NCBI GenBank assembly: GCA_963665815.1
Contig: OY762463.1
Coordinates: 2,285,949-2,349,948, forward strand
Direction of reading: 5' to 3'
Length of the DNA stretch: 64,000 nt
Origin: Candidatus Cloacimonadales bacterium
GTDB taxonomy: Bacteria; Cloacimonadota; Cloacimonadia; Cloacimonadales; JAIOQZ01
The position numbers and the translations under genes are program-made. The stretch's first letter is position 1, and the number at the start of each line of letters is the position of its first letter. This document shows positions 16,895-44,289 of the stretch, in pieces. The notes beneath the pieces were generated by a model. The model was given only the letters and a program-made list of their open reading frames with translations. It did no database searches and was not told the DNA's origin.

Positions 16895-16969
16895 TGGCAA
16901 TCCCTAGGGGAGTCGAACCCCTGTTGCAGGAATGAAAATCCTGAGTCCTAACCACTAGACGAAGGGATC
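16895..16969 (-). tRNA. tRNA-Glu (anticodon UUC), CCA encoded
   Basis: The reverse complement GATCCCTTCGTCTAGTGGTTAGGACTCAGGATTTTCATTCCTGCAACAGGGGTTCGACTCCCCTAGGGATTGCCA folds as a cloverleaf. Anticodon loop is TTTTCAT. Confidence 0.9.
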
Positions 16970-16990
16970 GTCAAATTTTAAAGATCAAAA

Positions 16991-17065
16991 TGGTGAGCCT
17001 GGATGGATTCGAACCATCGACTCTCTGCTTAAAAGGCAGATACTCTACCACTGAGTTACAAGCCC
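16991..17065 (-). tRNA. tRNA-Lys (anticodon UUU), CCA encoded
   Basis: The reverse complement GGGCTTGTAACTCAGTGGTAGAGTATCTGCCTTTTAAGCAGAGAGTCGATGGTTCGAATCCATCCAGGCTCACCA folds as a cloverleaf. Anticodon loop is CTTTTAA. Confidence 0.9.
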
Positions 17066-18777: not shown

Positions 18778-19098
18778 ACTCTTCCTTTCACTATCAATTA
18801 GAGATCTTTGTTTCTCTCAATTTTACAGAGTAATTAAACTTGTAAATGTTAATAATGTCAAGTATGAATAATGCTCATATTTTGAGTCGTATCGACACTG
18901 ACAGCATTTTCTTAAATATGTTAATTCCAGATAAAATGTTCTACAATTGTTTATTAATGACAGATATGTCTACATTTAATAATCCTTAATAAATAATGGT
19001 CATCCTGATTTATTCGGATTATTACAATGATGAACTGTACCTTTTTGTATTTACATTATTATCTTGCTATATTGATATTATTTTATTTTTTTTGCATT

Positions 19099-19665
19099 AT
19101 GACTGAAATGATTGAAATAATTCTTATCGCAATTGGGCTGGCTATGGACGCTTTTGCAGTGTCAATAAGCTGTGGAGCCGGATTCAAATGTTTTGACCTG
19201 AAATATGCTCTGAAGATAGCATTTCTTTTTGGTTTATTCCAGGCTGTTATGCCTTTAGCCGGCTGGCTTCTGGGATCTACCTTTATAGGCTGGTTTATCG
19301 GCTACACACACTGGGTTGCATTCGGACTGCTGTTCCTTATCGGGATGAAAATGCTGATAGATGCAGTTAAGGAACTCAGGAGTAAAGAGGAAAAACCCGA
19401 GTTCTGCTATCCTAAAAAACTGTCTGTGCTGCTTGGGCTGGCATTAGCCACAAGTATAGATGCTTTTGCTGTCGGACTCAGCTTTTCCATGCTTAAAATG
19501 ACAATTATGTCTGCTGTCATTATCATTGGAGTAATAACTTTTATTTTGTCTTTCGCAGGTAAATATATAGGATATAAGATAGGACATATCTTTGAAGATA
19601 AGGTCGAAATAGTGGGAGCTTTGATTCTCATTGGAATAAGTATAAAAATAATAATTATGAGGTAA
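19099..19665 (+). CDS. mntP: Manganese efflux pump MntP (DUF204)
   Basis: Duplicated GLAMDAFAVS / ATSIDAFAVG motifs in a 6-TM protein. The ATG at 19099 is preferred to the upstream ATG at 19027, which only adds an unalignable hydrophobic extension. Confidence 0.8.
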   Translation: MTEMIEIILIAIGLAMDAFAVSISCGAGFKCFDLKYALKIAFLFGLFQAVMPLAGWLLGSTFIGWFIGYTHWVAFGLLFLIGMKMLIDAVKELRSKEEKPEFCYPKKLSVLLGLALATSIDAFAVGLSFSMLKMTIMSAVIIIGVITFILSFAGKYIGYKIGHIFEDKVEIVGALILIGISIKIIIMR

Positions 19666-20475: not shown

Positions 20476-20817
20476 GTTAGTACAGGAAAAGCAGTTGATA
20501 TAGTTTACTGGAGTTTATACCGTAGCTTTTCCCGGTTCTTTGGAACTCAGGGAACTTATATATCTAACATTTTTCAGTAGGTTAAGCCGGTTGAGTCCCG
20601 ATGAAGTCGGGAAAGAAAAATGTTTCAACACAGCAGATAAACACCCATAGTTCCTGTCAAATCGAGAAGGAATACTGTAGACAGCTAAACTGCAACAATA
20701 CCAGTATTACATCTTTATAAGAAAAATAAAATGCTTTACTTTTTTGAAAGCACAAAAGAGATAAGGTCAAGAACTGACAGATATGAGATGCAGATAAGAA
20801 GATATTAGGGAGGACAT

Positions 20818-22743
20818 TTGAAAAACTACGTTTATGCCGGATTCTGGAGAAGGATACTGGCGTTTAAAATTGATGCAATCATAGCATTAATAATCTCATT
20901 AGTAATTATCAGATTGGTATATCTAAAAACCTATTATGCGTTGTTAGCTCAATACCCCAATTATTATTTCTTTCTGATCATTCCTTTTTTTGTAGTGCCA
21001 TGGTCGTACTTTATCTTTTTTCAAAGGTTTGCCGGAGCAACCCCAGGAGGACTCATAACAAAGTTAAGAGTTTTAAACTCAGAAACTGGAATGAAGCAAA
21101 GTATAGCTATGCTGTTTCTCAGACAGCTTATATTCTGGTTCATATATCCTTGTTCAATTTCAGTATTCTATGACTCAAGAAAACAGGGACTTCATGATAA
21201 ACTATCTAAAACAATTGTAGTGATGAAGTCTAATAAACCAAATGTTTACTATCTTTCATTTCCTACTCATCAAGAAGCAAAAGACAATAGATTATCTTAC
21301 TTGACGAACATAATAGCAATAGTAATGGTTATAGTCAATTTACTTTATTTCTACTGGATTAACCATGATGACAGACTGTTGCCTGGAGCTCAATTCTGGT
21401 TAGCAAAAGAGGAATCTACCTTAATGCCAGCCGAAGACAATTTATTATACTATTTGGTTGGATTCGGGAAGACAAATGATGATAATTCATTTGAAACAGG
21501 AAAAAAAATCGTAAGAAATAATTTAATTTTGAGTGAATTAAAAATACAGCATACACGAAAAATGGTAAGAGAAATGAATAGTTATGGTTTCCCTCCTACT
21601 ACTCCCGACAGTCTTAGGAACCTGGAATCCATATTAAAGGGAGATGCATTCCTCGACAAAATAAATGGGTTTGATGAAAAAAGTATAGAGTTTGTTAAAC
21701 GAAACAAGGGCTTCTTCAATCAAAAACTTCTATGGTTCTCAGAGCTTAAACATCAAACAGAAATTATCATATCCAAAAATATTTATTATGATGATATTCT
21801 GCAATATGATGCTCTAAGTTTCCAACCTTATCATGATTTTCATATTTATATAAGACTTCGGCTTATAAGCTATCTTACAGACGAAGGTATACAAACAAGT
21901 GAGATTTTATCATTCCTTGAGGATTTACAAAGAATCTACACATTAATTATTGTGAATACAAGAGATCTTTATACTACTAGATATACAACTTTTGCATATC
22001 AAAATGTCATCAGATTTTACGGTTTACTTCTGGATTCTGATTCAGTTAGTAAAAAGCAATTGAATGATTCTATATTTAATCTAAGAACACCAACATTAGA
22101 TTATGAGAATTATGAAACAAAAATCAGACACGAATTCAGAAATAAAATATTTGAATTGCTTTCTTATATGTGTGGAAGTGATGCAATATTTAAGCGTGAA
22201 AGATTATATGTAACTGAAAAAGAACTCAACTCATTGAATTGGTCAAAGTTCAAACCAAATAAAACAATAAATGTATATTATAGAAACTTCTCGAATATAC
22301 TCAAAGGCAAAATTAATGATGATTCTGATATTGTTAAGTTACCATTTACATTCTTAAGCCGATTAAACAATATAGTTGGAATAGCCGGTACCAATTCTTC
22401 ATATTATAATGTACATGATTTGAGAAATACAGAGAATACCTTGTTAAATCTGCAAAGCATGAGCAACCTCCTTAAGCTGAAAGCCATGATATACAGAGAC
22501 CATGTAAAAGAGGAAAACATTCAGGAATTCCTGAACACTCATGCTGATTCATTATATGATGTGCTTACAAGAGAGCCAATGAAATGGAATTCTGATGAAC
22601 AGGAAATCTACTTTGGTGAGAAAACAGAAACACCAGAGGAGTATGAAGCTTACCTTAAAATGGAACGTGATGAAAAGAAAAACAGACGTTTTAGAACATC
22701 GCGACATGAAAACCCGGATGCTTTGAAACTATATTTTAATTAG
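20818..22743 (+). CDS. RDD-domain membrane protein fused to a large uncharacterised domain (paralog 1 of 4)
   Basis: TTG start 6 nt after GGGAGG; the paralogs have ATG at the same position. KNYVYAGFWRRILA...GGLITKLRV...DSRKQGLHDKLSKTIVV is an RDD domain. It is followed by one more TM and about 450 aa with no domain I recognise. Confidence 0.8.
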   Translation: MKNYVYAGFWRRILAFKIDAIIALIISLVIIRLVYLKTYYALLAQYPNYYFFLIIPFFVVPWSYFIFFQRFAGATPGGLITKLRVLNSETGMKQSIAMLFLRQLIFWFIYPCSISVFYDSRKQGLHDKLSKTIVVMKSNKPNVYYLSFPTHQEAKDNRLSYLTNIIAIVMVIVNLLYFYWINHDDRLLPGAQFWLAKEESTLMPAEDNLLYYLVGFGKTNDDNSFETGKKIVRNNLILSELKIQHTRKMVREMNSYGFPPTTPDSLRNLESILKGDAFLDKINGFDEKSIEFVKRNKGFFNQKLLWFSELKHQTEIIISKNIYYDDILQYDALSFQPYHDFHIYIRLRLISYLTDEGIQTSEILSFLEDLQRIYTLIIVNTRDLYTTRYTTFAYQNVIRFYGLLLDSDSVSKKQLNDSIFNLRTPTLDYENYETKIRHEFRNKIFELLSYMCGSDAIFKRERLYVTEKELNSLNWSKFKPNKTINVYYRNFSNILKGKINDDSDIVKLPFTFLSRLNNIVGIAGTNSSYYNVHDLRNTENTLLNLQSMSNLLKLKAMIYRDHVKEENIQEFLNTHADSLYDVLTREPMKWNSDEQEIYFGEKTETPEEYEAYLKMERDEKKNRRFRTSRHENPDALKLYFN

Positions 22744-22783
22744 GAAGGATATAATGAAAAACTACGTTTATGCCGGATTCTGG
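22465..22783. repeat. Direct repeat (copy 1): 3' end of RDD gene 1 + spacer + 5' end of gene 2
   Basis: 319 bp matches 24407..24725 at an offset of 1942 bp. The last 191 bp (22593..22783) are identical. Confidence 0.9.
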
Positions 22784-24685
22784 AGAAGGACATTAGCTGT
22801 TTTAATCAATATGGTTATTGCAATGATTTTTCATGCCGTTTTTTTGAATTTCGATACATATATTTCTATTGCTGGACAAAGACCAATTCTGGTGGATGTT
22901 TTAAATATTGCCCTAATGTTCTTTTCATGTATTGTGTCTGTTCTGATGCTGCGTTTTCTGGGAGCAGATATTGGCGGATTGATTCTCAAGATGAGAGTTG
23001 TGAATGCTGAAACAGGCAATCACCAATCTGTAAAGAACCTGATTATCAGGTTTTTCATGCAGTACTTCAATTTCCTCAGTTTTGTTTCCATATTTTACGA
23101 TTCCAGAAAGCAAGGTTGGCATGACAAGGTTTCTTCATCTCTGGTTGTAGTGAAGTCCGGCAATGAACAGGAATACAGAATTGAGTTCCCTACATTTTCA
23201 ACGGATAAGGATAGAAAATTCAACTTCTTGATTTATATTTTTACAATACTATTTGCTCTCGTCAATACTGCATTTTTAACAATCAGCCTGCATGAAGATT
23301 CTTTATTACCGGAAGCTGCTGCATGGATAGGTGAACACATGGAGAAAGAAGAAAATCCTGAGGATAATGGATTCTACTATCTAATTGGCTTTGGAATGAC
23401 TACTGATGTAAACCAGTTTGAGAAAGGGTATCAAATAGTTCAGGAAATAAATAAAAAATCACTGGAAACTAGAGAAAAAGTAAGAAATAGACTTATGGGA
23501 AAGGGACCTAATCCATTTTCCGTATTTCCGAAAAGACAAAAGGAAGAGACATTTTTCCTCGAAGAAGATGAACTTGTGAAACACTTATGCAAGGTAAAAT
23601 ATGATACTACTATGTTAGATTCTACTAGAAAATACAAGAAAGATTTAAGTCGTATACTGAACAAATTCGAGTCTTTAGATTCTCAGATAACTAGAATTAC
23701 GGATCAGAAAACCTTTATTAATACTGAATGGCCTAACTGGGAATATACTACTCACAAGAGCTTGATATTACTTTCGAATTATCTTGAGTTGAAGATTATG
23801 TTAAGATTAAGTGAGTTTGATAAAGATAATACGTCCCTTTTTGAAACCCTGGATATAGTTGATGAAACCGGGAGATACATTCTGAAAAACTCAAGCAATG
23901 AGTATCATTGTTTGGTATCCGGTATAATTGTAAGGTATAAATCACTTGTTCTTGAATTATTGTTAGATTCATACAGAAATTCTTCGGCTATAATCAATCA
24001 AATTCTGGAAATGGAAAACCTTACTGATGATCATGTAAATTTGCAAAATATTGCCAAAAGGATATTTTTAGAAAAAGTTAGTTCAGCTTTCCTACCTGTA
24101 AACGGTAAAAATGAGATATTCCTTCGTGATGAATTTTTCATGAGACAAAACGAAGTCTCCACATTTTACTGTAGATTTTTTAAGCCAAACAAATACATTA
24201 ACAGTGAATATAAATATTATAGCTTATTATGCAATTTACATTTAAAAAATGGAGAAGAAATTGAGAACTTTAATGCTGATAGTATACTGATTAAAAAGAG
24301 TGACTTCAACCTTCTGAATAATCCTGTAAGTGTTGCTTATCATGAAAATAAAAGGACACTTAATGTTACAGTATTAAATATATTGAAAAAGGAAATGAAT
24401 CGGATTAACCTCCTGAAACTGAAAGCCATGATATACAGAGACCATGTAAAAGAAGAAAACATTCAGGAATTCCTGAACGCTCATGCTGATTCATTGTATG
24501 ATGTGCTAACAAGAGAACCAATGAAATGGAATTATGATGAACAGGAAATCTACTTTGGTGAGAAAACAGAAACACCAGAGGAGTATGAAGCTTACCTTAA
24601 AATGGAACGTGATGAAAAGAAAAACAGACGTTTTAGAACATCGCGACATGAAAACCCGGATGCTTTGAAACTATATTTTAATTAG
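22754..24685 (+). CDS. RDD-domain membrane protein fused to a large uncharacterised domain (paralog 2 of 4)
   Basis: Same architecture as paralog 1. The C-terminal 90 aa are almost identical to paralog 1. Confidence 0.8.
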   Translation: MKNYVYAGFWRRTLAVLINMVIAMIFHAVFLNFDTYISIAGQRPILVDVLNIALMFFSCIVSVLMLRFLGADIGGLILKMRVVNAETGNHQSVKNLIIRFFMQYFNFLSFVSIFYDSRKQGWHDKVSSSLVVVKSGNEQEYRIEFPTFSTDKDRKFNFLIYIFTILFALVNTAFLTISLHEDSLLPEAAAWIGEHMEKEENPEDNGFYYLIGFGMTTDVNQFEKGYQIVQEINKKSLETREKVRNRLMGKGPNPFSVFPKRQKEETFFLEEDELVKHLCKVKYDTTMLDSTRKYKKDLSRILNKFESLDSQITRITDQKTFINTEWPNWEYTTHKSLILLSNYLELKIMLRLSEFDKDNTSLFETLDIVDETGRYILKNSSNEYHCLVSGIIVRYKSLVLELLLDSYRNSSAIINQILEMENLTDDHVNLQNIAKRIFLEKVSSAFLPVNGKNEIFLRDEFFMRQNEVSTFYCRFFKPNKYINSEYKYYSLLCNLHLKNGEEIENFNADSILIKKSDFNLLNNPVSVAYHENKRTLNVTVLNILKKEMNRINLLKLKAMIYRDHVKEENIQEFLNAHADSLYDVLTREPMKWNYDEQEIYFGEKTETPEEYEAYLKMERDEKKNRRFRTSRHENPDALKLYFN

Positions 24686-24725
24686 GAAGGATATAATGAA
24701 AAACTACGTTTATGCCGGATTCTGG
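24407..24725. repeat. Direct repeat (copy 2): 3' end of RDD gene 2 + spacer + 5' end of gene 3
   Basis: See copy 1. 24535..24725 is identical to 22593..22783. Confidence 0.9.
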
Positions 24726-26585
24726 GACAGATTTATAATGTATTTGTTCGATGTAATGATTATTGCAGGGATTAACTATCTGTTTTCTATCGTGTTCAAG
24801 GTAAATAACGGTTTTATGTATCAACCCGGTACTATTGCTGCTTTTTATGCAAAATTTTATGTTATATTCCCCGTAATCTATTTCCCTGTTATGTGGATTC
24901 TATTCGGTGGTTCTATTGCATATCTTTTCAGACAGATTAAAATAGTTGATGCCAGAACCGGGGAGAAACCACCTTTCTGGAAAATGATTATCAGATATAT
25001 CACATTCCCAATATCAATACCGCTTTTAGGTCTTGGAGTGCTCTGGATGCTCTGGGATTCCCACAACCAAACCTGGCATGATAAGTTTTCCGGAACAATT
25101 GTGGTTAAGAGAAAAACTTTTAAACGAAAAGATCTTACTGTAGAGAACATAGAAAATCTGGTCGATGAGCAGAAAACAACTTTTCCACTTCCTCCTGCTC
25201 CAAGAGATAAAACTTTATGGAAGGTTGGAATTGTTTTTGCAGTAATATCACTCTTTGCCTGTGCAGGTATATCCTACATATTAAACTATGACGAAGAATT
25301 ATCTTCCAGTGCCGGTGAATGGCTGTATGAGGAGCCTTTTGTAGAAACTGATCCTCAGGATAACGCTTATTATTATTTAGTTGGATTTGAAGCTTCAAAA
25401 GACCAGAGTGCTTTTAATGCCGGATTTGATTTTGTGAATAATGAAAATGATATTGTATCTGGGAGAGCTAAAAGATCTCAATTCCCTGATGAAAATTCGA
25501 TTATAAAAATCTCCCCTATTGATGAAGGTAATTTTGGTCAGGATGCTTATGATGCTCTGAAAAATCCTGAAATATTCCAAAAGTTTATGAGCAAAAACAG
25601 AGATAAACTTAACTCCTATTTCAGTGATAATACTGTCCTCATAAATAGACTTAATCGAATTTCAGCCAAGTTGGAAAAAGGTTATTATAAAGAAACCATC
25701 ATCGACGAGGCTTCTGTTAAAATACCGGTACTCGTTACATACATAACCACGATAAGATTTTTACTCACCATTTATGCGGATGATTATGTACATTCTGACA
25801 AAAAAGAAGCGTTAGAAAAGATCGCAGCTTTTAAGGATGACGGATTAACTCTTGTCCGTGAATCTCAATCCATCCTGACATATCTGATTTACAGGACAAC
25901 TGTGCTGCTTACTCTGGACACCTACAATCTCCTTCTTGAACTTGATCCGCAAAATAGCCGGTTACATCAGGAAATTAGTAATATATCACCTATCTCTCAG
26001 GAAGAGATGCCTATGCAGAAAATTGCAAAGCATGATTTCAGATATTATTCATCATATTATCTCAATATGTTTAATCCAAATAAAACAATCTACTCAAAAG
26101 ATAAATTTCACATCTCGGAAGATGATGTGGTTCATAGTAAATCAATAATCTTCAAACCTGGAATGACATTGAATCAGGAATACAAGTATTCCAGGAATAT
26201 GGAGGAGCTATCTTCAGTTCAGGGGAAAGACTTCTATAAGAATTTTGCTAGATTAAGTGCAATACACGAAAACACAGTATTTGACTATATCAGAAACCCT
26301 TTCGGCTCTGCAATTGTGAATATCGCCAGACCCAGTAACGGAGATTACTACATAACCAAACATGACATCAATGGAAGAATTACCTTATTGAAACTGAAAT
26401 CCGAAATATACAGTAAAAAAATTGCTGAATCTGATGTAGCTGATTTCATAGAAGCAAATAATACTGAATATTACAATCCATTTACATTAGTTCCAATAAA
26501 ATTCAATGAACAATCAAATGAAATATACTATCTTGGACCGGATGAGAATTTCAATCCAAGTCGAAAACTATCGTTATCATTTTAA
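24696..26585 (+). CDS. RDD-domain membrane protein fused to a large uncharacterised domain (paralog 3 of 4)
   Basis: Same architecture; N-terminus MKNYVYAGFWDRFIM, with WDSHNQTWHDKFSGTIVV. Confidence 0.8.
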   Translation: MKNYVYAGFWDRFIMYLFDVMIIAGINYLFSIVFKVNNGFMYQPGTIAAFYAKFYVIFPVIYFPVMWILFGGSIAYLFRQIKIVDARTGEKPPFWKMIIRYITFPISIPLLGLGVLWMLWDSHNQTWHDKFSGTIVVKRKTFKRKDLTVENIENLVDEQKTTFPLPPAPRDKTLWKVGIVFAVISLFACAGISYILNYDEELSSSAGEWLYEEPFVETDPQDNAYYYLVGFEASKDQSAFNAGFDFVNNENDIVSGRAKRSQFPDENSIIKISPIDEGNFGQDAYDALKNPEIFQKFMSKNRDKLNSYFSDNTVLINRLNRISAKLEKGYYKETIIDEASVKIPVLVTYITTIRFLLTIYADDYVHSDKKEALEKIAAFKDDGLTLVRESQSILTYLIYRTTVLLTLDTYNLLLELDPQNSRLHQEISNISPISQEEMPMQKIAKHDFRYYSSYYLNMFNPNKTIYSKDKFHISEDDVVHSKSIIFKPGMTLNQEYKYSRNMEELSSVQGKDFYKNFARLSAIHENTVFDYIRNPFGSAIVNIARPSNGDYYITKHDINGRITLLKLKSEIYSKKIAESDVADFIEANNTEYYNPFTLVPIKFNEQSNEIYYLGPDENFNPSRKLSLSF

Positions 26586-26599
26586 ATAGGGATTTGTTA

Positions 26600-28498
26600 A
26601 TGAAAAACTACGTTTATGCCGGATTCTGGGACAGATTTATAATGGGACTGCTTGATCTTATTATAGTTCTCGGACTGATTTATGTTATTAAAACTCCGTT
26701 ACATGTTAATTTCTTTTCCATATACTCGAAAGAACTGTCTCAGTTTTACACAGTCTGGTTTATCAGAGCAATACCGTTTCTGTATTATATTGGAAGCTGG
26801 AAGCTACTGGGTGGAACTCCTGCCAATATTGTAAGACAGGTCCGGATTCTGGATTGCGCCACAGGTGAAAAGCCTTCCCTTGTAAAGCTGTTAATCCGAT
26901 TCCCGGGAATGTTTGTATCAGCACCTCTTCTTTTTCTCGGGTACTTCCAAATGTTGTGGGATTCCCGTAAACAGACCTGGCATGATAAGCTTGCCGGCTC
27001 GGTTGTAGTAAGGAACAAGACTCACAAGAAAGCTGAAATCAGTATTGATGACATTGATAGTATTGCTGCTGAAACAGGATTGCAATTCCCAATAGAACCG
27101 TCCGAAAGAGATGTTTCACTCTGGAAGTTTGGAAGATTCGTTACTGCGATCTCAGCCGTGCTGTTTGTAATGTTCTGTATCTACTGGTTCAGGGATGAAC
27201 CGCTGTCTCCGGGAGCTAAGCAATGGCTGTCTGAGATAGATTATGAGATTGATGACCCTTACAACAATGTGTATTACCATCTGGACGGCTTTCAAGCTCC
27301 TGAAGGAATGTTGCCCTATATATATTCTAGAGAGAATGCCGAAATAAACAATAGAAATGTATTAAAATATCAACAAAATTTAGGTGTATCAAAAGCTGAT
27401 GAGATTCCGTTTGAGGAAGAACTAAATAATGAGTACTTTCCAGTGAATGATTTTAAGAAGCTTGCATTAAATCTCAAAGATCCTGATTCACTTTTTTTAT
27501 ACTGCACTCAAAGAAAATCAGATATACTAGCCCTTAAGCAGAAGTATTCATTTCTTGATGAGCGTTACAAGAAAATTGAAGAGCTTGCCACATCTGGTAC
27601 ATTCAGAAACCCGTTTATACCATCACCTATTACGAAATTGCCTATTTTCATGCATTATGTTTCTTATCTACGTATGCAAAACCATTTTAATTCTCTTGAT
27701 TATATTGAGGGATCAAGAAAAGACGCTGTGAAAAATCTACTTAGGAACTTATCTACAAATATTACATTAACAGAACAAGCACCGGACTTAATATCAAAGC
27801 TGGCTTTGTCTATAGCGGTCAGAGATCATATAATAACTCTCTGCCACTTATTGGACTACAATTCCAGTGATTCATGTATACATACTGAAATCGACAAAAT
27901 GAACTATTTAAGCAGTGACTTCACTGATATGACCAAAGTGTTTAAGTCTCAATTTTATGAGCAAATTGCTACTTTACTTACTACATACACATCTGTAAGA
28001 AAGCTCTACTCAAGAATACCATTTGAAATTACAGAGGAAGACATTAATTATGGCTATCTTCTCTCTCATCGACCTGGAGAAACTATAAATCAAGAATACA
28101 AGATGCTTGCAAGCTTAGCTGAGTTTTCCAAACTACCCGGTGATGAGTTTGTTCATAAGATTAACAGAGATTTCATTCCTCAAAGGAAAACTATCGATGC
28201 TCTTAGAAACTTGCCTCTGTATATTATTACAATTGCCGTTCCAGACTGGAATGAATACACAGTGAAACTGCATGATATCAATGGCACAATTACTCTGACA
28301 AAACTCAAATCTCTTATCTATCAAAACAACATTAAGAAAAGCAGTTTAGATGTTTTCCTTGAGGAAAATAAAGAAAAGCTGCATAATCCATTCAGTGATG
28401 AAGCGATTCAATTCAATGCAGAAACGAATGAGATTTACTATACCGGACCTTATCAGGAAGACCATAAAGATTACAGGAGTGTTAAACTCACATTTTAG
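26600..28498 (+). CDS. RDD-domain membrane protein fused to a large uncharacterised domain (paralog 4 of 4)
   Basis: ATG at 26600 is chosen by alignment with the paralogs; the track start at 26594 is a TTG two codons upstream. WDSRKQTWHDKLAGSVVV. Confidence 0.8.
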   Translation: MKNYVYAGFWDRFIMGLLDLIIVLGLIYVIKTPLHVNFFSIYSKELSQFYTVWFIRAIPFLYYIGSWKLLGGTPANIVRQVRILDCATGEKPSLVKLLIRFPGMFVSAPLLFLGYFQMLWDSRKQTWHDKLAGSVVVRNKTHKKAEISIDDIDSIAAETGLQFPIEPSERDVSLWKFGRFVTAISAVLFVMFCIYWFRDEPLSPGAKQWLSEIDYEIDDPYNNVYYHLDGFQAPEGMLPYIYSRENAEINNRNVLKYQQNLGVSKADEIPFEEELNNEYFPVNDFKKLALNLKDPDSLFLYCTQRKSDILALKQKYSFLDERYKKIEELATSGTFRNPFIPSPITKLPIFMHYVSYLRMQNHFNSLDYIEGSRKDAVKNLLRNLSTNITLTEQAPDLISKLALSIAVRDHIITLCHLLDYNSSDSCIHTEIDKMNYLSSDFTDMTKVFKSQFYEQIATLLTTYTSVRKLYSRIPFEITEEDINYGYLLSHRPGETINQEYKMLASLAEFSKLPGDEFVHKINRDFIPQRKTIDALRNLPLYIITIAVPDWNEYTVKLHDINGTITLTKLKSLIYQNNIKKSSLDVFLEENKEKLHNPFSDEAIQFNAETNEIYYTGPYQEDHKDYRSVKLTF

Positions 28499-28848
28499 TT
28501 GCATACAGATGATTAGAATCAACTATCAGTTTGACAGGCTCTTGTAGAGGCACAACATCTTGTGTCTCAGAATAAGTGGTACGCATGCATCTGTCTTCGT
28601 TGTAAATACACCAGACAAATCCTTGTCTGCAAATACAGCTTCAACAAAAAAATGCTCGAACGGCGTTGTAAGATAATTATATTAAAATTGATAGAGTTAG
28701 ATAATGCGAGCAGGGATGCTTCACATCGTTCACATTGAGACAACCGGTCGTATTTCTCTATGCGCTAAGGTCTACCTGCATTAATTTGTTTGGCAATCAT
28801 CAATATTTATCATATTTTATTATATATAATAATCTTATGGAGACGTAA

Positions 28849-29508
28849 ATGAACAATCATAAATTAGAATTCAGATATAATGATAAGATTAAAGCAATTA
28901 TTAAGGATGAAGAAGGTATAAATGATGCAGACAAGATAACTAAGATTATCCTGAAATATAATCTGCTTAAGGATTTTCAGCAAAGTATTGAATCCGAGAC
29001 AAGAAAACTTTCTCGAAAAATAAAAGACCTTTCCAGACAAGCATTTACTGACCCCAACATTAACATGCACAATAAAAATTTTCTGGATCATAAACTTGAT
29101 GTGCTTATTAATGATCTAGATAACGACGGACCTTTATTTAGTATCGTAATCTTTGATGTTTCTGAAGTTTACAACAACCTTGATTCAGATGATTTTAAGT
29201 TTATGAACAAGAATATCTCAACAAATCTTTCCATGCAGACAAGAGACATAGATATCATAAGTACAATGGACGAAACTCATTTTGCTTTAATCACATTTAC
29301 AATAGAAGAAAACTCGCTTACAGGCTATGCAGACAGGTGCAAGAATGTTATAGCAACTACTATTACAGATTTTACGGACACTGAAGGTGGTGTTAAGGAA
29401 AATATCTTTTACGGTTATTCCATCTCCAGATACTCAGATACTACCACCTCACTTCTGGACAGAGTAATTAACGAAACCCGGAAGGAAAAAGTAAAGGCAA
29501 AAGTTTAA
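28849..29508 (+). CDS. Degenerate GGDEF-domain protein with N-terminal coiled-coil
   Basis: DPNINMHNKNFLDHKL (compare DPLTGLPNRRxF), FSIVIFDVSEV (compare DIDHFK) and RDIDIISTMDETHFALI (compare RxxDxxxRxGGDEFxxx). The GGDEF signature is replaced by MDETH. Confidence 0.5.
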   Translation: MNNHKLEFRYNDKIKAIIKDEEGINDADKITKIILKYNLLKDFQQSIESETRKLSRKIKDLSRQAFTDPNINMHNKNFLDHKLDVLINDLDNDGPLFSIVIFDVSEVYNNLDSDDFKFMNKNISTNLSMQTRDIDIISTMDETHFALITFTIEENSLTGYADRCKNVIATTITDFTDTEGGVKENIFYGYSISRYSDTTTSLLDRVINETRKEKVKAKV

Positions 29509-29951: not shown

Positions 29952-31109
29952 ATGAAAAAGAAAATTATCTATATTGTGTTGGTTATTGTTACTGCTTTTT
30001 TTGCATATCGTGTCTACAATCTTGTAAAAGACAAATATTTTGCATCTACTGGTAACAACAGAAGAAATCAGGCTACAGCAGTCTATGCAGAAAATATCCC
30101 ATTAGGCAGTATATCTGACATTATTGAGCTCAATGGAGACCTTAAAGCGTTATATTCATACAAGCTGAAAGCTGAAGTATCAGGTACCCTGAATAAAATC
30201 AACTGTGAACTCGGTGATCAGATTGATGAAGCGAAAACAGCTGCTTTTATTGATGACCACGAGTATATACTCAGGAGCAGAGAAGCAGAAGCTCAACTGA
30301 ATGTTAAACAGGCAAAATATAATCAGCAGAACAGTAAAAAGAAAAATGCCGAAGCTGATTTTCAAAGAGCCCAGTCCCTGCATTCCCAAAGTTTCATATC
30401 CGACTCGGAATTCGAAGAAGCAGAATATGACTACAACACTTTTATTGCAGACTATCATACAGCCGGAGCTGAATTAGCTGCCGCTCAGGCACAGTTCGAT
30501 CTGGCTCAGACAGATTTGCACAAAACCAAACTCAGAGTTAATAAAAAGGGTATCGTTGCAGAAAAGTTCTATGATATTGGCAGCTACATCAGTGCCGGAA
30601 GTTCTGTATTCACAATTGTAAACATCGACACTATTATTGTCAGGACATCCATCTCAGAAAAAGATTATCCGAAAGTGAACCGGGGTCAGTCTGTGGAAAT
30701 CCATATTGATGCTATGCCGCAGAGAAAATTTACCGGCTATATCTCAGCTATTGCACCGGTACTTAACACCGAAACCAGAATGGCAAATCTGGAAATTAAA
30801 ATAGAAAACAAAGACAAATCCCTGAAACCGGGTATGTACTGTACAATCAGAATTTATGCTGAAGAAAAATCAAATGTTCCACTAATACCTAATAATGTAA
30901 TTGTGAAAGTTAATGATGTATCCGGAGTATATTCTGTTGATGAAAAGGAGATGAAAGCAATATTCGTACCTGTAAAACTTGGTATTATCTCAGAAAAATA
31001 CTCAGAATTGCTCTCACCTGTTATAAATAACAAAATCATTACATTCGGACAGTTCCAGATCAAGAAAGGTTCATCTGTTAAGATCACAAATGAGAATGGT
31101 GGTAAATAA
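29952..31109 (+). CDS. Efflux RND transporter periplasmic adaptor (HlyD/MFP family)
   Basis: N-terminal anchor, lipoyl-like and coiled-coil segment (AELAAAQAQFDLAQTDLHKTKL), beta-barrel region. Immediately upstream of the RND permease. Confidence 0.8.
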   Translation: MKKKIIYIVLVIVTAFFAYRVYNLVKDKYFASTGNNRRNQATAVYAENIPLGSISDIIELNGDLKALYSYKLKAEVSGTLNKINCELGDQIDEAKTAAFIDDHEYILRSREAEAQLNVKQAKYNQQNSKKKNAEADFQRAQSLHSQSFISDSEFEEAEYDYNTFIADYHTAGAELAAAQAQFDLAQTDLHKTKLRVNKKGIVAEKFYDIGSYISAGSSVFTIVNIDTIIVRTSISEKDYPKVNRGQSVEIHIDAMPQRKFTGYISAIAPVLNTETRMANLEIKIENKDKSLKPGMYCTIRIYAEEKSNVPLIPNNVIVKVNDVSGVYSVDEKEMKAIFVPVKLGIISEKYSELLSPVINNKIITFGQFQIKKGSSVKITNENGGK

Positions 31110-31111
31110 GA

Positions 31112-34100
31112 ATGAGTATTGCAAGAGGTCCCGTTGAACGCCCGGTGCTGACATTTATCATATTTCTGATAATTGTTATACTCGGTATAATATCATTCTT
31201 TCGTTTACCTATAGATCTTATGCCGGAGATTACATATCCGACAATCTCAGTGGCAACAAGCTATCCGAATGTTGGTCCTCAGGAAATTGAGGAACAGATA
31301 ACGCGAATAGTCGAAGAAGCAATTGCTGCTGTTCAAGGGGTTAAAGAAATTACTTCTACATCCACAGAAGGAAGCAGTTCCGTGAGAATATCTTTCGAGT
31401 GGGGTACAAATCTGGATATTGCAGCGAATGATGTAAGAGACCGCATTGACAGAATTCTCTCCAGACTACCCGATGATGTAGACCGTCCTTCTATCCGCAA
31501 GTTCGACCTCTCTGCATTCCCTGTTCTGATTCTCGGAGTTTCCGCAGAAATGGATCCACTTGTTCTGAAGCAGACAATAGAAGATCAGATTAAGTACAGA
31601 CTGGAAAGAATAAACGGAGTAGCGTCTATTGATATCAGAGGTGGGTGGAACAGAGAAATCAGTGTGCGGCTTTCATCTGAAAAAATGCAGGCATACGGGA
31701 TATCAATTACAGAGATTCAGAATGCGATTGCCAGGGATAATGAAAATACTCCTGTCGGACTGGTTACCAATGGTGGAAGAGATTTACTGGTCAGGACAAT
31801 GGGACAGTTTACTTCATTAAATGAATTGAAAAACGTTGTCGTCAGGAATGTTGATCAGCAATCCGTAAAGCTCTCAGATATTTGTGAAATTGAGGATACT
31901 CACGAGGAAATAACACAGATACACAGAATCGACAATAAACCTGGTTTAAGAATATCCATAAGTAAGCAGTCCGGAGCTAACACTGTAGATGTTGTGAAAA
32001 CAATCAAACATGAGCTGAAAAAAATAGCTCAGGATTATCCTCAGATACAGCTTGTACCGATAATCGATTCATCAAAATATATCAAGCAATCTATCAACAA
32101 TGTCGGTGTATCCGTATTTGTGGGAGGTCTGCTTGCCATAGTCATTCTTTTCCTTTTTCTCGGGAACATCTCCAGCACGGGGATTATTGCAACTGCGATT
32201 CCGGTCTCTGTTTTAGCTACATTCGGACTTCTCTACTTCTCTGGTCTCACTCTCAACATCATGACATTTGGAGGTCTTGCTCTTGGAATAGGGATGCTTG
32301 TAGACAGCTCTATTGTTGTTCTGGAGAACATTTCCCGGCACAAGGAGAAAGGAAGTTCGGTAATTAAAAGTACCTTGCAGGGAACCTCTGAGGTCTGGTC
32401 TGCCATTCTTGCCAGTGTTCTGACAACTATCGTAGTATTCCTGCCTGTTATATTCATAAAAGGTATGTCCGGTGTCATGTTCCAGCAGATGGCTATAGTG
32501 GTGAGTTTCTCGCTTCTGTGTTCACTTGTTGTCTCATTGACTCTTATTCCGATGCTCAGTTCAAGGTTCATGTCTGAAAAAAGTGCAGATGCTAATAAAG
32601 CAGGTACTCTTCCTGCAGTAAAATTCGTTTCATCCCTGTTGAAAAAAGCAGAAGACTACTATCTGAAAATCCTGAGATTCTCACTTCTTAACCGTAAATA
32701 TATTCTGATAATTTGCGGACTGTTGTTTGCTGTTTCTCTGTTTATGATTACACTGATTGGTGTGGAGCTCATGCCGGAAACAGATGAAGGTGAGGTTCGG
32801 GTTGACCTCGAAATGGCTATTGGGACAGAACTGGAAGATATTGACGCCATGACAACCAGAGCAGAAAAAATCGTCAGTGATAACGTACCTGAGCTTGTTT
32901 CGATGATAACCAGAATAGGAAGTGGAGGGTGGAGAGCTCGTGGAGGACACACTTCTCAGATCAGGATATCTTTACCTGAGAGAAACAATAGGAAACGCAG
33001 CAGCAAGGAAATAGCTAATGACTTAAGAAAGAAGCTCAGCAGTCTTGTTGGAGTTAAAATCCGAACCAGAGCAGCCGGTGGTTTATTCATTATGCGCATG
33101 GGAACATCTTCTGATGATAATCTCAGCGTTGAAGTACGTGGCTATAACCTTAAAATTGCTAATGATCTTGCCAAAAAAATAGATGAAGCTGTCCAACAGG
33201 TTACGGGAATTACAGATACAAGAATCAGCCGGGAAGAAGGGAATCCTGAACTGGTTTTGCATATAGACAGAGAAAAAGCTGCTGACTCCGGTCTCAGTAT
33301 AAGTGATGTGACTGATGCTCTGCAAACTCTAATAAGCGGATCAAACGTTTCATACTACCGTGAATCAGGAAAGCAATTCCCTATATTTGTTCGTCTGAAA
33401 GAAGAAGACAGAACATCTATGAAAGACATCCTGAATTTGTCACTGCAGAACAGGAATGGAGACTATGTTATTCTGAGTAATATAATATCTACAGAAACTT
33501 CAGAAGGTCCGATCAGGATCGAGAGGAAAAACCAGGAGAGAATCATAAATATCACAGCCAACTTTATTGGTCGCGATATGGGATCAGTTATAAAAGACGT
33601 GCGCAAGGCTATTAAGGACATACCTGTGCACAAAGATTTCTCTATTCTTTTTGGTGGAGATTACGAAGAACAACAGAAGTCTTTCAGGGAGTTGATGTTT
33701 GCCTTTGCGTTGGCGATTGTGCTCGTATTTCTCGTTATGGCAGGTCAATTCGAGTCGTTCCTCGATCCCTTTGTAATCCTGTTTTCAGTACCAATGGCGC
33801 TGATCGGGGTTGTGATAACTATGATCTTCACGAATACAGTATTCAGTATGCAGGCATTGATAGGCTGCATTATGCTGGCAGGAATTGTGGTAAATAATGC
33901 TATTTTACTCGTGGACTATACGAACAGACTGCGCAGAGAAAGTGGTCTATCCCTGCAAAGCGCTATTGAAACAGCAGGACTGGGAAGGCTGAGACCTATC
34001 CTGATGACAACTCTGACGACAATCCTCGGGCTGCTGCCAATGTCTTTTGGTATTGGAGATGGCGGCGAAGCTCAGGCTCCTATGGGAAGAGTTGTTATTG

Positions 34101-34195
34101 GTGGACTTATCAGTTCAACACTTATTACTCTGGTTCTGGTTCCGGTAATCTACAGTATATTTGAACAAAGACTAAAGAAGGAAAATTCTACGTAA
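31112..34195 (+). CDS. RND efflux permease (AcrB/CzcA superfamily)
   Basis: 1027 aa with 12 TM helices and two large periplasmic loops. N-terminus RPVLTFIIFLIIVILGIISFFRLPIDLMPEITYPTISV and C-terminal GRLRPILMTTLTTILGLLPM are typical. Confidence 0.9.
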   Translation: MSIARGPVERPVLTFIIFLIIVILGIISFFRLPIDLMPEITYPTISVATSYPNVGPQEIEEQITRIVEEAIAAVQGVKEITSTSTEGSSSVRISFEWGTNLDIAANDVRDRIDRILSRLPDDVDRPSIRKFDLSAFPVLILGVSAEMDPLVLKQTIEDQIKYRLERINGVASIDIRGGWNREISVRLSSEKMQAYGISITEIQNAIARDNENTPVGLVTNGGRDLLVRTMGQFTSLNELKNVVVRNVDQQSVKLSDICEIEDTHEEITQIHRIDNKPGLRISISKQSGANTVDVVKTIKHELKKIAQDYPQIQLVPIIDSSKYIKQSINNVGVSVFVGGLLAIVILFLFLGNISSTGIIATAIPVSVLATFGLLYFSGLTLNIMTFGGLALGIGMLVDSSIVVLENISRHKEKGSSVIKSTLQGTSEVWSAILASVLTTIVVFLPVIFIKGMSGVMFQQMAIVVSFSLLCSLVVSLTLIPMLSSRFMSEKSADANKAGTLPAVKFVSSLLKKAEDYYLKILRFSLLNRKYILIICGLLFAVSLFMITLIGVELMPETDEGEVRVDLEMAIGTELEDIDAMTTRAEKIVSDNVPELVSMITRIGSGGWRARGGHTSQIRISLPERNNRKRSSKEIANDLRKKLSSLVGVKIRTRAAGGLFIMRMGTSSDDNLSVEVRGYNLKIANDLAKKIDEAVQQVTGITDTRISREEGNPELVLHIDREKAADSGLSISDVTDALQTLISGSNVSYYRESGKQFPIFVRLKEEDRTSMKDILNLSLQNRNGDYVILSNIISTETSEGPIRIERKNQERIINITANFIGRDMGSVIKDVRKAIKDIPVHKDFSILFGGDYEEQQKSFRELMFAFALAIVLVFLVMAGQFESFLDPFVILFSVPMALIGVVITMIFTNTVFSMQALIGCIMLAGIVVNNAILLVDYTNRLRRESGLSLQSAIETAGLGRLRPILMTTLTTILGLLPMSFGIGDGGEAQAPMGRVVIGGLISSTLITLVLVPVIYSIFEQRLKKENST

Positions 34196-36284: not shown

Positions 36285-38639
36285 TTATTTCAACATTATC
36301 ATTTTGTTTATCAGCGATGACTTTTCTGTTTTGACTTTATAGAAATATACTCCGGATGCTACGCTCTTGTTGTTTTGGTCTGTTCCGTTCCATTTTATTG
36401 TATGATATCCGCTTTCTTGATTTTTATTTATCAACTGCTTAACCTTCTGCCCCTTAATATTATACACTTCAATACAAACATTGCCTTCTTCAGGAAGACT
36501 GTATGATATGGTTGTGGTTGGGTTGAAGGGGTTAGGGTAGTTGTTAGCTGTAACTTTTGTGTCTCTAAAATCTGAATACTTATTGAAATTGCCCACAGGC
36601 TGCCACTCATAACAGCCCATATCTACAGTACTGCCGTATGTTCTGGTGTTTCCTGCCAGATCAAGCAGTGGGAAATTACTGCCTGCTACTGCTCCGGCAT
36701 CCACGCAGGGACTTGTTTCCTGCAATTTGTAATAGTCTGTGCTTGTGCTGTCTCCTCCGACAAACTCAGGCAAAACATCAATATTGGTGTCTTCGTAAGT
36801 AAGTAGATGCTCGTTTTCTTTGGGTATTACCATAACTGATTGCTCTCCACCTAAAATCAGATTATTACTAATCGTGGAGGAGTTCTGGTGATCTACAGTA
36901 CATATTGCTATTTCTCTGGAATCGTACATAGAATATGGATTGTAGAAAATATTATTATATACGTAAGAATTATTACCCACAATTTCAAACTTAACAAGCT
37001 GATCCTGAAAACTGATATAATTATTAGCAAATGTATTATTCCTGACATATGTGTCACCATAAATAGAACCAATATACCCCACAGCCTGTGCGTTGTATGA
37101 TATATTGTTTACTACAAGGTTGTTATCAAATACAACAAGACTGTCTCCAAACAGAACAAAAGCATTTTCATTGAGAGGAGCATAGCTTGTATTTCCATTG
37201 AATATACTGTTGGACACATAAACAGAGTCTGCTGTTACCCTTACTGCATTATCACAACATTCTATATGATACTCTGTTACCTGATTACCGGTGAACTCGC
37301 AATTGTCTATTACTGCTTTGCCAATCCCAGACATAAATAAACCGGAATTACTATCCGTTGATCTACAATTAAGTATTTTAACGTTTCTCAATTCAGCAGA
37401 CTCGCATCCTTCAATCATTAATCCTGCAAAATTTCGAGCATAGCAGTTTTTTATGACAACATCATCTAGTTGTATCTTCCTACCATTATGCCCTCGGAAA
37501 GTCAGTCCTTCACCTACGGGATTTTCTATAGTTAACCCTGATATTTCAATATCTTTGTATTCATACATTGCATAAACAACACGTCTATCTGAAATATACC
37601 CACCAAGATAAGTGACATCTGAGCCTGCTCCGGCTAATCTGCAATGACTCTTCAATACAGGAGTATTAAATCTATCCAGAAACTGGAGCGAATAATCTCC
37701 GGCTGCAATATGAACAGTTTTGGGATTAAGACTGTCTGCCGCCAAAAGCTTGCAGGCATCTACAATTGAATACTTTGGATCATCGGGTGAAAGTCCGGAG
37801 TTAGCATCATCTCCATCCATTGATACATACAAATCTGCATTTACCGGTGTTATGTGTCCTCTGAGAATGTCAAACTGCATGGGATTTCCTGTATATGATG
37901 AAAATAATCTACTGTAGTTTGCATAATATCGGGATGCAACAGCTTCACTGAACTTATCAAGATAAATCATTATTACTTTATCATAATTTCGGGGAATATA
38001 TCGAATTTCAATATCCATACCTCCATATGCCATATTATTGTATATACTGCATCTGTTCACAGAAGAAAAGATCATTTCTGAAGTTAATTCTGGTTTATAA
38101 CAAACTCCCCCCCCTGACCATGAGAAATTATCATGTATATCAAGCCCGGCTAATTCAATATCTACTTCACCGGAAATATAAATTCCTCCTCCAAGATGAG
38201 TAACTTTATTTTCATAAATATCACAATTTGTAATCTTCATATTGCCATCTGCATTAATACTGATGCCACCACCAACGGGACTAACTCCTCCGTAACCATT
38301 GGTAATTGTAAAACCTCTTATTTCTGCATTGTTTACCTGCTGTCCCCAGATTTCTATTACCTTGCCGACACCACAACCATTTAGTATGGTTTCTGCAATA
38401 TAATGATTTTCTCCGGTTAGTGCTTCCATTGAATAAAGTTTTATGCATCTACCGTTAAAATTAAGATTTACTGCATAAAATCCAGGATATACAAGTACAA
38501 TATCACCATCGGATGAGCTGTCTATCGCCTGCTGTATATCGGTAAAATCTCCGCTGCCATCAAGGTTTACTGTATGTGTTAAACTTAACAGTATCAATGG
38601 TACTAGTGTAAGTATAAGTATTGCAAGCTGCTTTTTCAT
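36285..38639 (-). CDS. T9SS-sorted secreted protein with right-handed parallel beta-helix repeats (island paralog A)
   Basis: Signal peptide MKKQLAILILTLVPLILLS. Repeated N-x-h-x-x-N beta-helix-like segments (NNTFANNY, NNLVVNNISY, SNSIFNGNTS). C-terminal NYPNPFNPTTTISYSLPEE...GVYFYKVKTEKSSLINKMIMLK is a T9SS C-terminal domain. Confidence 0.8.
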   Translation of the reverse strand: MKKQLAILILTLVPLILLSLTHTVNLDGSGDFTDIQQAIDSSSDGDIVLVYPGFYAVNLNFNGRCIKLYSMEALTGENHYIAETILNGCGVGKVIEIWGQQVNNAEIRGFTITNGYGGVSPVGGGISINADGNMKITNCDIYENKVTHLGGGIYISGEVDIELAGLDIHDNFSWSGGGVCYKPELTSEMIFSSVNRCSIYNNMAYGGMDIEIRYIPRNYDKVIMIYLDKFSEAVASRYYANYSRLFSSYTGNPMQFDILRGHITPVNADLYVSMDGDDANSGLSPDDPKYSIVDACKLLAADSLNPKTVHIAAGDYSLQFLDRFNTPVLKSHCRLAGAGSDVTYLGGYISDRRVVYAMYEYKDIEISGLTIENPVGEGLTFRGHNGRKIQLDDVVIKNCYARNFAGLMIEGCESAELRNVKILNCRSTDSNSGLFMSGIGKAVIDNCEFTGNQVTEYHIECCDNAVRVTADSVYVSNSIFNGNTSYAPLNENAFVLFGDSLVVFDNNLVVNNISYNAQAVGYIGSIYGDTYVRNNTFANNYISFQDQLVKFEIVGNNSYVYNNIFYNPYSMYDSREIAICTVDHQNSSTISNNLILGGEQSVMVIPKENEHLLTYEDTNIDVLPEFVGGDSTSTDYYKLQETSPCVDAGAVAGSNFPLLDLAGNTRTYGSTVDMGCYEWQPVGNFNKYSDFRDTKVTANNYPNPFNPTTTISYSLPEEGNVCIEVYNIKGQKVKQLINKNQESGYHTIKWNGTDQNNKSVASGVYFYKVKTEKSSLINKMIMLK

Positions 38640-38829
38640 AGGTTTCCTTCTTTTGAAATTCTCCTCTATAAAGAGGAGTACTCCGCTTTGCGGAGGGAGG
38701 TGTGTCTCACACCTTCCGAATGGACTTTGTCCTTCCGAATGGTGTGAGATATATTTATTTATTATTGTTAAACCTCAGCCTGTCCTGACTAAATCAGGAC
38801 AGACAGCTCCCTGTATAGGGAGCACTCTT

Positions 38830-41184: not shown

Positions 41185-41294
41185 AGGTTTCCTTCTTTGA
41201 AATTCTCCTCTATGAAGAGGAGTACTCCGCAATGCGGAGAGAGGTGTGAGAAAATTATGTTTTATGTAGCCACACCATTCGGAAGGGGAAAATA

Positions 41295-43817: not shown

Positions 43818-44289
43818 TATTTTCTCCTTCTGTGGAGACGAGAAAAAACTTGCACACAAATCATAATCCTGCAATGATGTATTCAGGAAATGGGTTTGTT
43901 GCGGTCTTCTTGCCGGAAGCTATTGTTTGCATTCTCATTTCCGTTTATTGATACTATAATATTGTCATTTTGAAATGGAGTATTTAAGAAACCAGATTAC
44001 TACATTAAGAGAACCTTACTCAGGGAAAAATACATACTTATAAAGAAACACAACTACATATCTGCAAGAATTCAAAATATTGTCTAAGAGCTTTTATCTG
44101 TTGAAACTGTAGATGAATTTCATCGAAGCTCTTTTAATTCTACACCGATATAAAACTTTCCATTTGATCAATTGAGAACAAATCTGGGGGAGGCATGTCA
44201 AGGTATTTTTGCGTATTTTGGAATCCCCCCGTTTTTTCTTGAAAATCTGACTTCAAGATAACTGGAAGGATTTTATCAGACATTTCTTA

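Follow-up and report, generated by a model that had tools for sequence, protein, structure and literature searches.

We describe a tandem array of four genes in a 64,000-nucleotide stretch of a Candidatus Cloacimonadales genome (contig OY762463.1; the whole stretch is referred to here as the window) that code for membrane proteins in which an RDD module is joined through a further transmembrane (TM) helix to a large, putatively periplasmic helical domain. Comparison with a syntenic locus (L001) from a Candidatus Cloacimonadales metagenome-assembled genome, recovered by a genome-collection scan, shows that whole genes are gained and lost in cassette fashion at 30-nt gene heads, and that the centers of two of the helical domains have been replaced by anciently diverged alleles, a behavior typical of recognition and conflict proteins. 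The C-terminal domain itself is a widespread, uncurated family that occurs mostly without RDD. From these properties we tentatively infer that the array codes for a recombination-diversified set of periplasm-facing binding proteins acting at a recognition or conflict interface, a reading that we regard as possible while falling somewhat short of probable.

The four genes, W1 (20818-22743; 641 amino acids [aa]), W2 (22754-24685; 643 aa), W3 (24696-26585; 629 aa), and W4 (26600-28498; 632 aa from its ATG, or 634 aa from an alternative TTG start at 26594), are co-directional on the forward strand, with spacers of 10, 10, and 14 nt and a purine-rich ribosome-binding site ahead of each, and they are probably transcribed as one operon. 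The open reading frames (ORFs) bear out the gene count, lengths, and orientation given in an initial annotation made from the sequence, and the conserved motifs that it quoted are present in the four-way alignment. All four proteins open with MKNYVYAGFW, although pairwise identities among the copies are only 22 to 39%. L001 codes for two RDD-fusion genes rather than four; one (L1a) is orthologous to W2 (68% aa identity overall) and the other (L1b) to W4 (56%), and W1 and W3 have no L001 orthologue. Because the copies are deeply diverged and two of them have orthologues in L001, an assembly artefact of a single gene, a possibility raised at the outset, is excluded.

Conservation between the orthologues is confined to the RDD part and the last 50 to 85 residues, which enclose a divergent center of 320 to 370 residues. 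Between W2 and L1a, the N-terminal arm (aa 2 to 240) is 94% identical with a synonymous divergence (dS) of 0.08 and a nonsynonymous divergence (dN) of 0.030, and the C-terminal arm (aa 568 to 643) is 95% identical (dS 0.10, dN 0.022), whereas aa 241 to 540 are 42% identical (dS 5.2, saturated; dN 0.50). W4 and L1b behave similarly, with arms at aa 2 to 210 (92% identity, dS 0.21, dN 0.036) and aa 571 to 632 (74%, dS 0.36, dN 0.156) and a center at aa 211 to 570 that is 32% identical, with dN of 0.70 and dS saturated to the point of not being computable. The flanking genes, with the exception of a 219-aa gene considered below, are 92 to 99% identical between the window and L001 (dS 0.27 to 0.72, dN 0.007 to 0.062). 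Third-codon-position identity switches abruptly from 85 to 100% in nearly every arm block to 15 to 63% in the center and back again, delimiting a central cassette in gene 2 at 23474-24424 (aa 241 to 557; 20 to 63% versus 90 to 100% in the arms, with sharp boundaries) and one in gene 4 at 27230-28336 (aa 211 to 579; 15 to 55% from aa 221 to 579 versus 85 to 100% in most arm blocks). Blastn finds no nucleotide similarity across the centers between the window and L001, and the divergence spans 950 to 1,100 nt at all codon positions. The initial annotation had called for a dN/dS analysis; between the orthologues the ratio is 0.17 to 0.43 in the arms, compared with 0.03 to 0.11 in neighboring housekeeping genes, and the centers are saturated.

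Synonymous sites in the centers have reached saturation, whereas those in the arms point to a more recent origin than the genome background. The centers are therefore anciently diverged alleles brought in by recombination, a case of allele replacement rather than of rapid point mutation or relaxed constraint. The L001 centers are only 7 to 33% identical to the other window paralogues and are evidently not copied from them. No second copy of the centers and no significant inverted repeats are present in the window, and we therefore reject a diversity-generating retroelement, a shufflon, or an invertible promoter; for the retroelement this rests on the repeats, no scan aimed specifically at a reverse transcriptase having been made. 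These observations bear directly on the proposal that the proteins are low-constraint periplasmic scaffolds or chaperones, whose divergence and copy-number change would be neutral by-products of paralogue recombination with no diversifying selection. Such a role would suit an all-helical, solenoid-like predicted fold whose weak structural neighbors are only HEAT or TPR scaffolds, as well as a family that is single-copy among housekeeping genes elsewhere and has no evident partner genes. However, relaxed constraint cannot saturate dS in the centers while leaving it at 0.08 to 0.36 in the arms, the L001 centers do not derive from other window paralogues, and sharp-edged replacement of the center is seen independently in both orthologue pairs; we thus consider the scaffold proposal unlikely.

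The change in gene number follows equally precise boundaries. In L1a the W2 body is preceded by the upstream region, ribosome-binding site, and TTG start of W1, and in L1b the W4 body is preceded by the W2-tail/spacer junction found ahead of W3 in the window, so that the window and L001 differ by two precise one-gene insertions or deletions, with both crossovers inside the 30-nt gene head. This head (TTGAAAAACTACGTTTATGCCGGATTCTGG in copy 1, with consensus ATGAAAAACTACGTTTATGCCGGATTCTGG) is found on the forward strand at 20818-20847, 22754-22783, 24696-24725, and 26600-26629 (four matches with at most one mismatch); it is identical in the four window copies except for the TTG start of W1, and zero occurrences are expected by chance. 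The first 10 codons are thus the same at every synonymous site across paralogues that are otherwise highly diverged, and the L1b head differs by one base (TGG to CGG, changing W to R). The identity of the heads may be kept either by recurrent recombination or by constraint on translation initiation. There is also a homogenized 300-nt tract at 22465-22764, spanning the 3' tail of gene 1, the spacer, and the head of gene 2, which is 97% identical to 24407-24706, the corresponding tail of gene 2, spacer, and head of gene 3. This is the conversion tract reported in the initial annotation, and the tails of W1 and W2 differ by a dS of 0.19, with the remainder of the two genes saturated.

A rough neighbor-joining tree gives the groupings (W1,(W2,L1a)) and (W3,(W4,L1b)); W1 and W2 (lineage A) are 38% identical, W3 and W4 (lineage B) are 33% identical, and identities between the two lineages are ∼22 to 25%. 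There are indeed four paralogues, as first described, but this pattern indicates two old lineages rather than one recent four-fold expansion. The array has non-coding flanks close to the ∼350 bp initially described: a 342-bp upstream region on the same strand (20476-20817), which is the presumed promoter region and in which the ∼195 nt next to the W1 start are 80% conserved in L001, and a 350-bp downstream region (28499-28848). The W1 ribosome-binding site (GGGAGG, 20808-20813) lies 5 nt ahead of the TTG start. A consensus scan of the upstream region gives no convincing sigma-70 promoter, and Rfam scans of the flanks are empty even at E-values up to 1, so that a riboswitch or other RNA element there is rejected. 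The upstream neighbors (metallo-beta-lactamase [MBL]-fold, ThiI-like, MntP, and ZIP genes) and the downstream 219-aa gene are the same in L001, and the array locus is not an island but lies in conserved synteny among housekeeping genes. The suggestion that it is an accessory system is strengthened by the variation in copy number (four versus two) and by the hypervariable centers.

The proteins are members of the known, functionally enigmatic RDD family. All four match RDD (PF06271) from residue 6 to ∼133 with E-values of 4.5e-11 to 2.5e-20 and scores of 43.6 to 73.6 bits, above the Pfam gathering cut-off of 24.1, and cover model positions 1 to 136/137, in agreement with the RDD module initially assigned to each. 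The signature residues, an arginine where the first TM helix begins and an aspartate inside that helix, seen here as GFW(R/D)R followed by (I/F/L)D, are present in W1, W3, and W4, W2 carries N instead of the first signature D (LINMV), and the RDD part includes a conserved DSRKQxWHDK...VV segment. The initial annotation had given this module three TM helices, and although the module itself is clear, the AlphaFold model and the distribution of charges indicate a core of two predicted TM helices plus a re-entrant hairpin rather than three full TM helices. In the model of W3 the N-terminal module has two long helices, a short helix pair (aa 94 to 119), and a small three-stranded sheet, and the fusion proteins are rich in K and R at the N-terminus, in the loop after TM2, and in the linker before TM4. 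Because K/R-rich segments flank it, the stretch from residue 94 to 120 would dip into the membrane from the cytoplasmic side and return to it, which would in turn place the DSRKQxWHDK segment at the cytoplasmic face. Hydropathy, charge bias, and AlphaFold secondary structure all predict a cytoplasm-facing polar site, which matches the conserved intramembrane binding site oriented to the cytoplasm described for RDD (PMC12419801).

The fourth TM helix that had been proposed to follow RDD is present as a hydrophobic helix, located by hydropathy at aa 158 to 183 in W1, 156 to 180 in W2, 172 to 198 in W3 (25209-25289), and 176 to 198 in W4. The domain beyond it is, by strong inference, outside the cytoplasm: in 128 of 134 aligned family members the residues ahead of this anchor helix are more positive than those after it (mean net charge of about +0.5 before and about -3 in the strongly acidic stretch after), and ∼55% of members have a conserved cysteine pair, with stand-alone members having a median of only 2 cysteines in the domain. 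Charge bias and the cysteine pair thus give an extracytoplasmic answer to the topology question raised initially. An array of type IX secretion cargo genes lies close by in the window; the organism is therefore diderm, and the extracytoplasmic compartment would be the periplasm.

With this topology the proteins could in principle be transmembrane sensors, in which the variable periplasmic domain senses ligands and RDD relays the signal to a cytoplasmic partner, possibly the 219-aa degenerate GGDEF-like protein coded downstream (28849-29508, forward strand; Pfam E-value 0.1, with a partial match to NCBIfam PleD at 7.5e-6). The cytoplasmic orientation of the RDD polar site and the mention of RDD-histidine kinase fusions (PMC12419801) are compatible with signaling, and L001 retains the GGDEF-like gene beside its RDD-fusion genes. 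The GGDEF-like gene has diverged to an unusual degree (73% aa identity, dS 1.45), further than the other flanking genes; this could stem either from a functional connection or from its linkage to a polymorphic array. However, in most members of the family the cytoplasmic part consists only of the few residues before the anchor helix, the GGDEF match is below the Pfam threshold, and the gene is 350 bp from the array and is a conserved neighbor in L001 only, being absent beside other homologues. We regard a sensory role as quite improbable.

Even more improbable, in our view, is that the proteins act in the manner of the only two RDD proteins studied experimentally, either as regulators of membrane or periplasmic proteases, like Bacillus subtilis SppI on SppA, or as RDD-type cation/proton antiporters with a regulatory ectodomain. 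The C-terminal part of SppI binds and inhibits SppA (PMC7568657), and Na+(Li+,K+)/H+ antiport is reported for the RDD protein of Halobacillus (PMC5996927), but no salt or pH phenotype is reported for sppI (PMC7568657), and neither sppA nor another protease gene is located beside the array, in L001, or in six further homologue contexts. Moreover, the ectodomain functions without RDD in most members of the family, and a hypervariable ectodomain is unexpected for a transporter or a housekeeping regulator.

The 430- to 460-aa C-terminal domain that follows TM4 in each copy has no match in Pfam, NCBIfam, PADLOC, or PDB sequence profiles, consistent with the initial inability to assign it to a family, but it is not peculiar to this locus. 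An exhaustive HMMER search with a profile of the four C-terminal parts against 1.84 billion representatives recovered 741 proteins at an E-value of 1e-3 or better (276 at 1e-10 or better), the majority of them without RDD. An exhaustive search was needed, as word-index homologue searches returned only the window's own proteins and one RDD-TPR protein, and those searches together with a metagenome scan gave no further close relatives of the array. There are two main architectures, proteins of ∼600 aa in which the match begins near residue 150 and proteins of ∼450 aa in which it begins within the first ∼25 residues. Ninety of the 134 aligned homologues have a single anchor helix only, and others have membrane modules such as Yip1 or WG repeats; among 91 members scanned against Pfam, RDD was found in 31 and Yip1 or WG repeats instead in single members, with no Pfam or NCBIfam assignment for the domain itself. 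Where source names are given they read only "RDD family protein," and these members are from Cloacimonadota, Candidatus Electryonea, Candidatus Zophobacter, and Desulfomonilia. A mobile-element origin is rejected, as no members are present on the phages, plasmids, and viral contigs searched. We note that in two independent contigs the gene directly upstream of one stand-alone homologue (P0037) codes for a small protein of ∼157 aa (9380-9853 in locus L024 and 144-626 in L025) that is secreted, lacks a Pfam match, and may be a partner of the stand-alone form; since the product is secreted and is not an RDD partner, the idea of a split ("Rosetta stone") gene is rejected.

An AlphaFold2 model of W3 built on a 134-sequence alignment is of high confidence (mean predicted local distance difference test [pLDDT] 90.6, predicted template modeling score 0.87), in contrast to a useless model (pLDDT 45) obtained from the four paralogues alone. 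After RDD, the model has a long anchor helix (aa 169 to 197), ∼18 further helices, and a small C-terminal beta-sheet. The structure-based search that had been suggested for the C-terminal domain likewise gives no assignment: Foldseek finds no significant match in the PDB (best E-value 0.13, query-normalized template modeling score at most 0.17, all generic HEAT/TPR solenoids) or in BFVD. Comparison of ectodomain segments by hhalign gives no internal repeats (probabilities of 0.5% or less), and no Pfam repeat hits are found in the 91 members, which places the domain outside TPR, HEAT, and other helical-repeat families.

Several polar residues of the domain (N223, R318, and N493) are 95 to 99% conserved across the family, but the window locus and its relative depart from this pattern, with R318 replaced by Q in W1, W2, and L1a and N223 by E in L1b, and with the near-invariant E437, E447, and K396 variable in the array copies. 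This conservation is relevant to the proposal that the proteins handle a glycan or lipid carrier, in which the RDD module would bind the carrier at the inner leaflet, leaving the periplasmic domain to bind or process an envelope glycan that varies between strains, or its precursor, much like serotype-specific polysaccharide factors, with the ectodomain body tracking glycan structure. The family-wide conservation of N, R, N, E, Y, and W residues resembles that of carbohydrate-binding sites, saturated divergence between conserved flanks is typical of serotype genes, and one homologue is located near genes for BacA, a polysaccharide deacetylase, a polyprenyl synthase, and CpsB. RDD is also commonly fused to VanZ, where it is discussed with lipid-carrier-bound exopolysaccharide precursors (PMC12419801), and RDD is reported to occur in Mce-associated lipid-transport operons as well (PMC1810536). 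Against this, neither the window nor L001 has genes for a glycosyltransferase, flippase, or polymerase beside the array, other homologue contexts have no envelope-polysaccharide link, Foldseek finds no lyase, hydrolase, or Wzz-like fold, and the conserved polar residues are not retained in the window copies. A role in glycan handling is therefore rather unlikely.

In the interpretation that we favor, of a diversified set of periplasm-facing binding proteins, each protein would insert with its N-terminus in the cytoplasm, the RDD polar residues (R of GFWxR, D of IDxxI, and the DS(R/H)(K/N)QxWHDK segment) would sit on the cytoplasmic side, and the fourth helix would export the all-helical domain into the periplasm. 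This ectodomain has a conserved base formed by its first 40 to 70 and last 50 to 85 residues, and a hypervariable body of 320 to 370 residues that would be exposed and under diversifying (frequency-dependent) selection, acting as a binding module. Diversification proceeds on two scales, with whole genes gained or lost through homologous crossovers within the identical 30-nt heads, and with the conserved arms used to swap the central body for anciently diverged alleles. The proteins might, for example, be targets or blockers of phage or toxin components crossing the periplasm, with several specificities held side by side. We do not think that the ectodomain is an enzyme or an ion transporter; a binding role is suggested because the domain works without RDD in most members, because residues that are near-invariant in the family are substituted in the array copies, and because the center tolerates wholesale replacement. 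A more specific version, in which the products are polymorphic inner-membrane gatekeepers whose bodies contact an invading phage or toxin, whose RDD modules couple that contact to the inner leaflet, and whose head-repeat array stocks specificities, is one that we hold doubtful.

Several observations weigh against a recognition or conflict role. The population evidence comes from a single relative, L001, and the locus has no ligand, partner, phage, or toxin gene linked to it. The six further homologue contexts have no conserved neighborhood, and the family is single-copy there among housekeeping genes, which looks more like envelope housekeeping than a defense island; one stand-alone type, from gammaproteobacteria, lies between ruvB and ybgC-tolQ. 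Family members are also absent from the phages, plasmids, and viral contigs searched. The conservation of N223, R318, and N493 could mark a catalytic or conserved ligand site, and, since the periplasm has no direct contact with the exterior, a source of diversifying selection is not obvious. PADLOC places the proteins in none of its models, giving only one weak match (E-value 0.0045), in which the RDD part of W3 aligns with the C-terminal end of PD-T4-6, and none to the ectodomain.

Several other features of the window are of note. Between the 219-aa gene and a DUF3667 gene is a resistance-nodulation-division (RND) efflux pair (29952-34195) coding for an HlyD-type membrane-fusion protein (385 aa) and an AcrB-type pump (1,027 aa), which is absent at the matching position of L001; L001 position 14880 joins window position 34200, giving a ∼4.7-kb presence/absence polymorphism beside the array. 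A second tandem array, on the minus strand at 36285-43874, has three paralogues (784, 800, and 859 aa) that each end in a type IX secretion C-terminal sorting domain (Por_Secre_tail/CHU_C), with the last 300 nt 79 to 87% identical; at this site L001 has one gene, a 528-aa ORF whose 3' end matches the shared tail. Two adjacent tRNA genes (16898-17065, minus strand) lie 3.7 kb upstream of the RDD-fusion array in a region that is 98% identical in L001. The MntP ORF (19027-19665) is listed with an N-terminal extension of ∼25 aa, and its Pfam match begins at aa 57; an internal Met (MTEMIEI...) is more likely to be the true start.

Among known systems, the closest relatives by sequence are the RDD proteins themselves (PF06271; B. 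subtilis SppI/YteJ and YckC, and the RDD protein of Halobacillus andaensis). The N-terminal ∼135 residues of the array proteins match the RDD model end to end and share its signature R and D residues and its predicted cytoplasmic-side polar site (PMC12419801), but the array proteins add a TM helix and the 430- to 460-aa helical domain to what is found in the characterized members, and they form a recombining multigene set with no SppA partner and no sign of ion transport. The initial statement that RDD proteins are usually small and stand-alone is too strong, as RDD is often fused to other domains, including VanZ (PMC12419801) and, in a 388-aa JGI metagenome protein (P0162), TPR repeats (RDD at aa 10 to 148 and TPR at aa 219 to 365); the TPR part of P0162 has no sequence relation to the domain studied here. 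The array proteins resemble these fusions, and the model of the PD-T4-6 defense protein, whose C-terminal part weakly resembles RDD, in using RDD as a membrane module joined to a second domain, although no similarity to VanZ, TPR repeats, or kinases could be detected in the partner domain of the array proteins.

The RDD domain is found very widely in membrane proteins, and the literature continues to describe its role as unknown. The locus described here ties it to an uncurated, putatively periplasmic family with at least 741 representative clusters, a confident predicted structure, and no known fold neighbor; to judge from the libraries and literature that we searched, the ectodomain family, its lack of a fold neighbor, and the recombination behavior of the locus have not been described before. 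With arms that are conserved, centers that are swapped, and entire genes gained and lost at a 30-nt repeat, the locus offers an unusually clean natural experiment, one that points experimenters to the part of the protein under pressure to vary. If the variable body is a recognition or conflict surface, it would represent envelope polymorphism of a new kind, in a little-studied phylum whose members are abundant in anaerobic digesters, and would provide testable hypotheses for the stand-alone homologues in Proteobacteria; gatekeeping at the inner membrane, if true, would for the first time set the enigmatic RDD domain in a mechanistic context.

In their evolutionary behavior, the genes can be compared with the flagellin central domain, the target-recognition domains of HsdS, and polymorphic toxin/immunity arrays, in which recombination exchanges a hypervariable center between conserved arms. 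The array proteins are unrelated to all of these in sequence and fold, and whereas they code for a surface filament, a DNA-recognition subunit, or toxins, the array product would be an inner-membrane protein facing the periplasm; unlike such loci, the array has no recombinase, inverted repeats, or silent partial cassettes. What it shares with them are the sharp breakpoints, the saturated center between recently shared arms, the tandem divergent copies, and the differences in copy number between related genomes.

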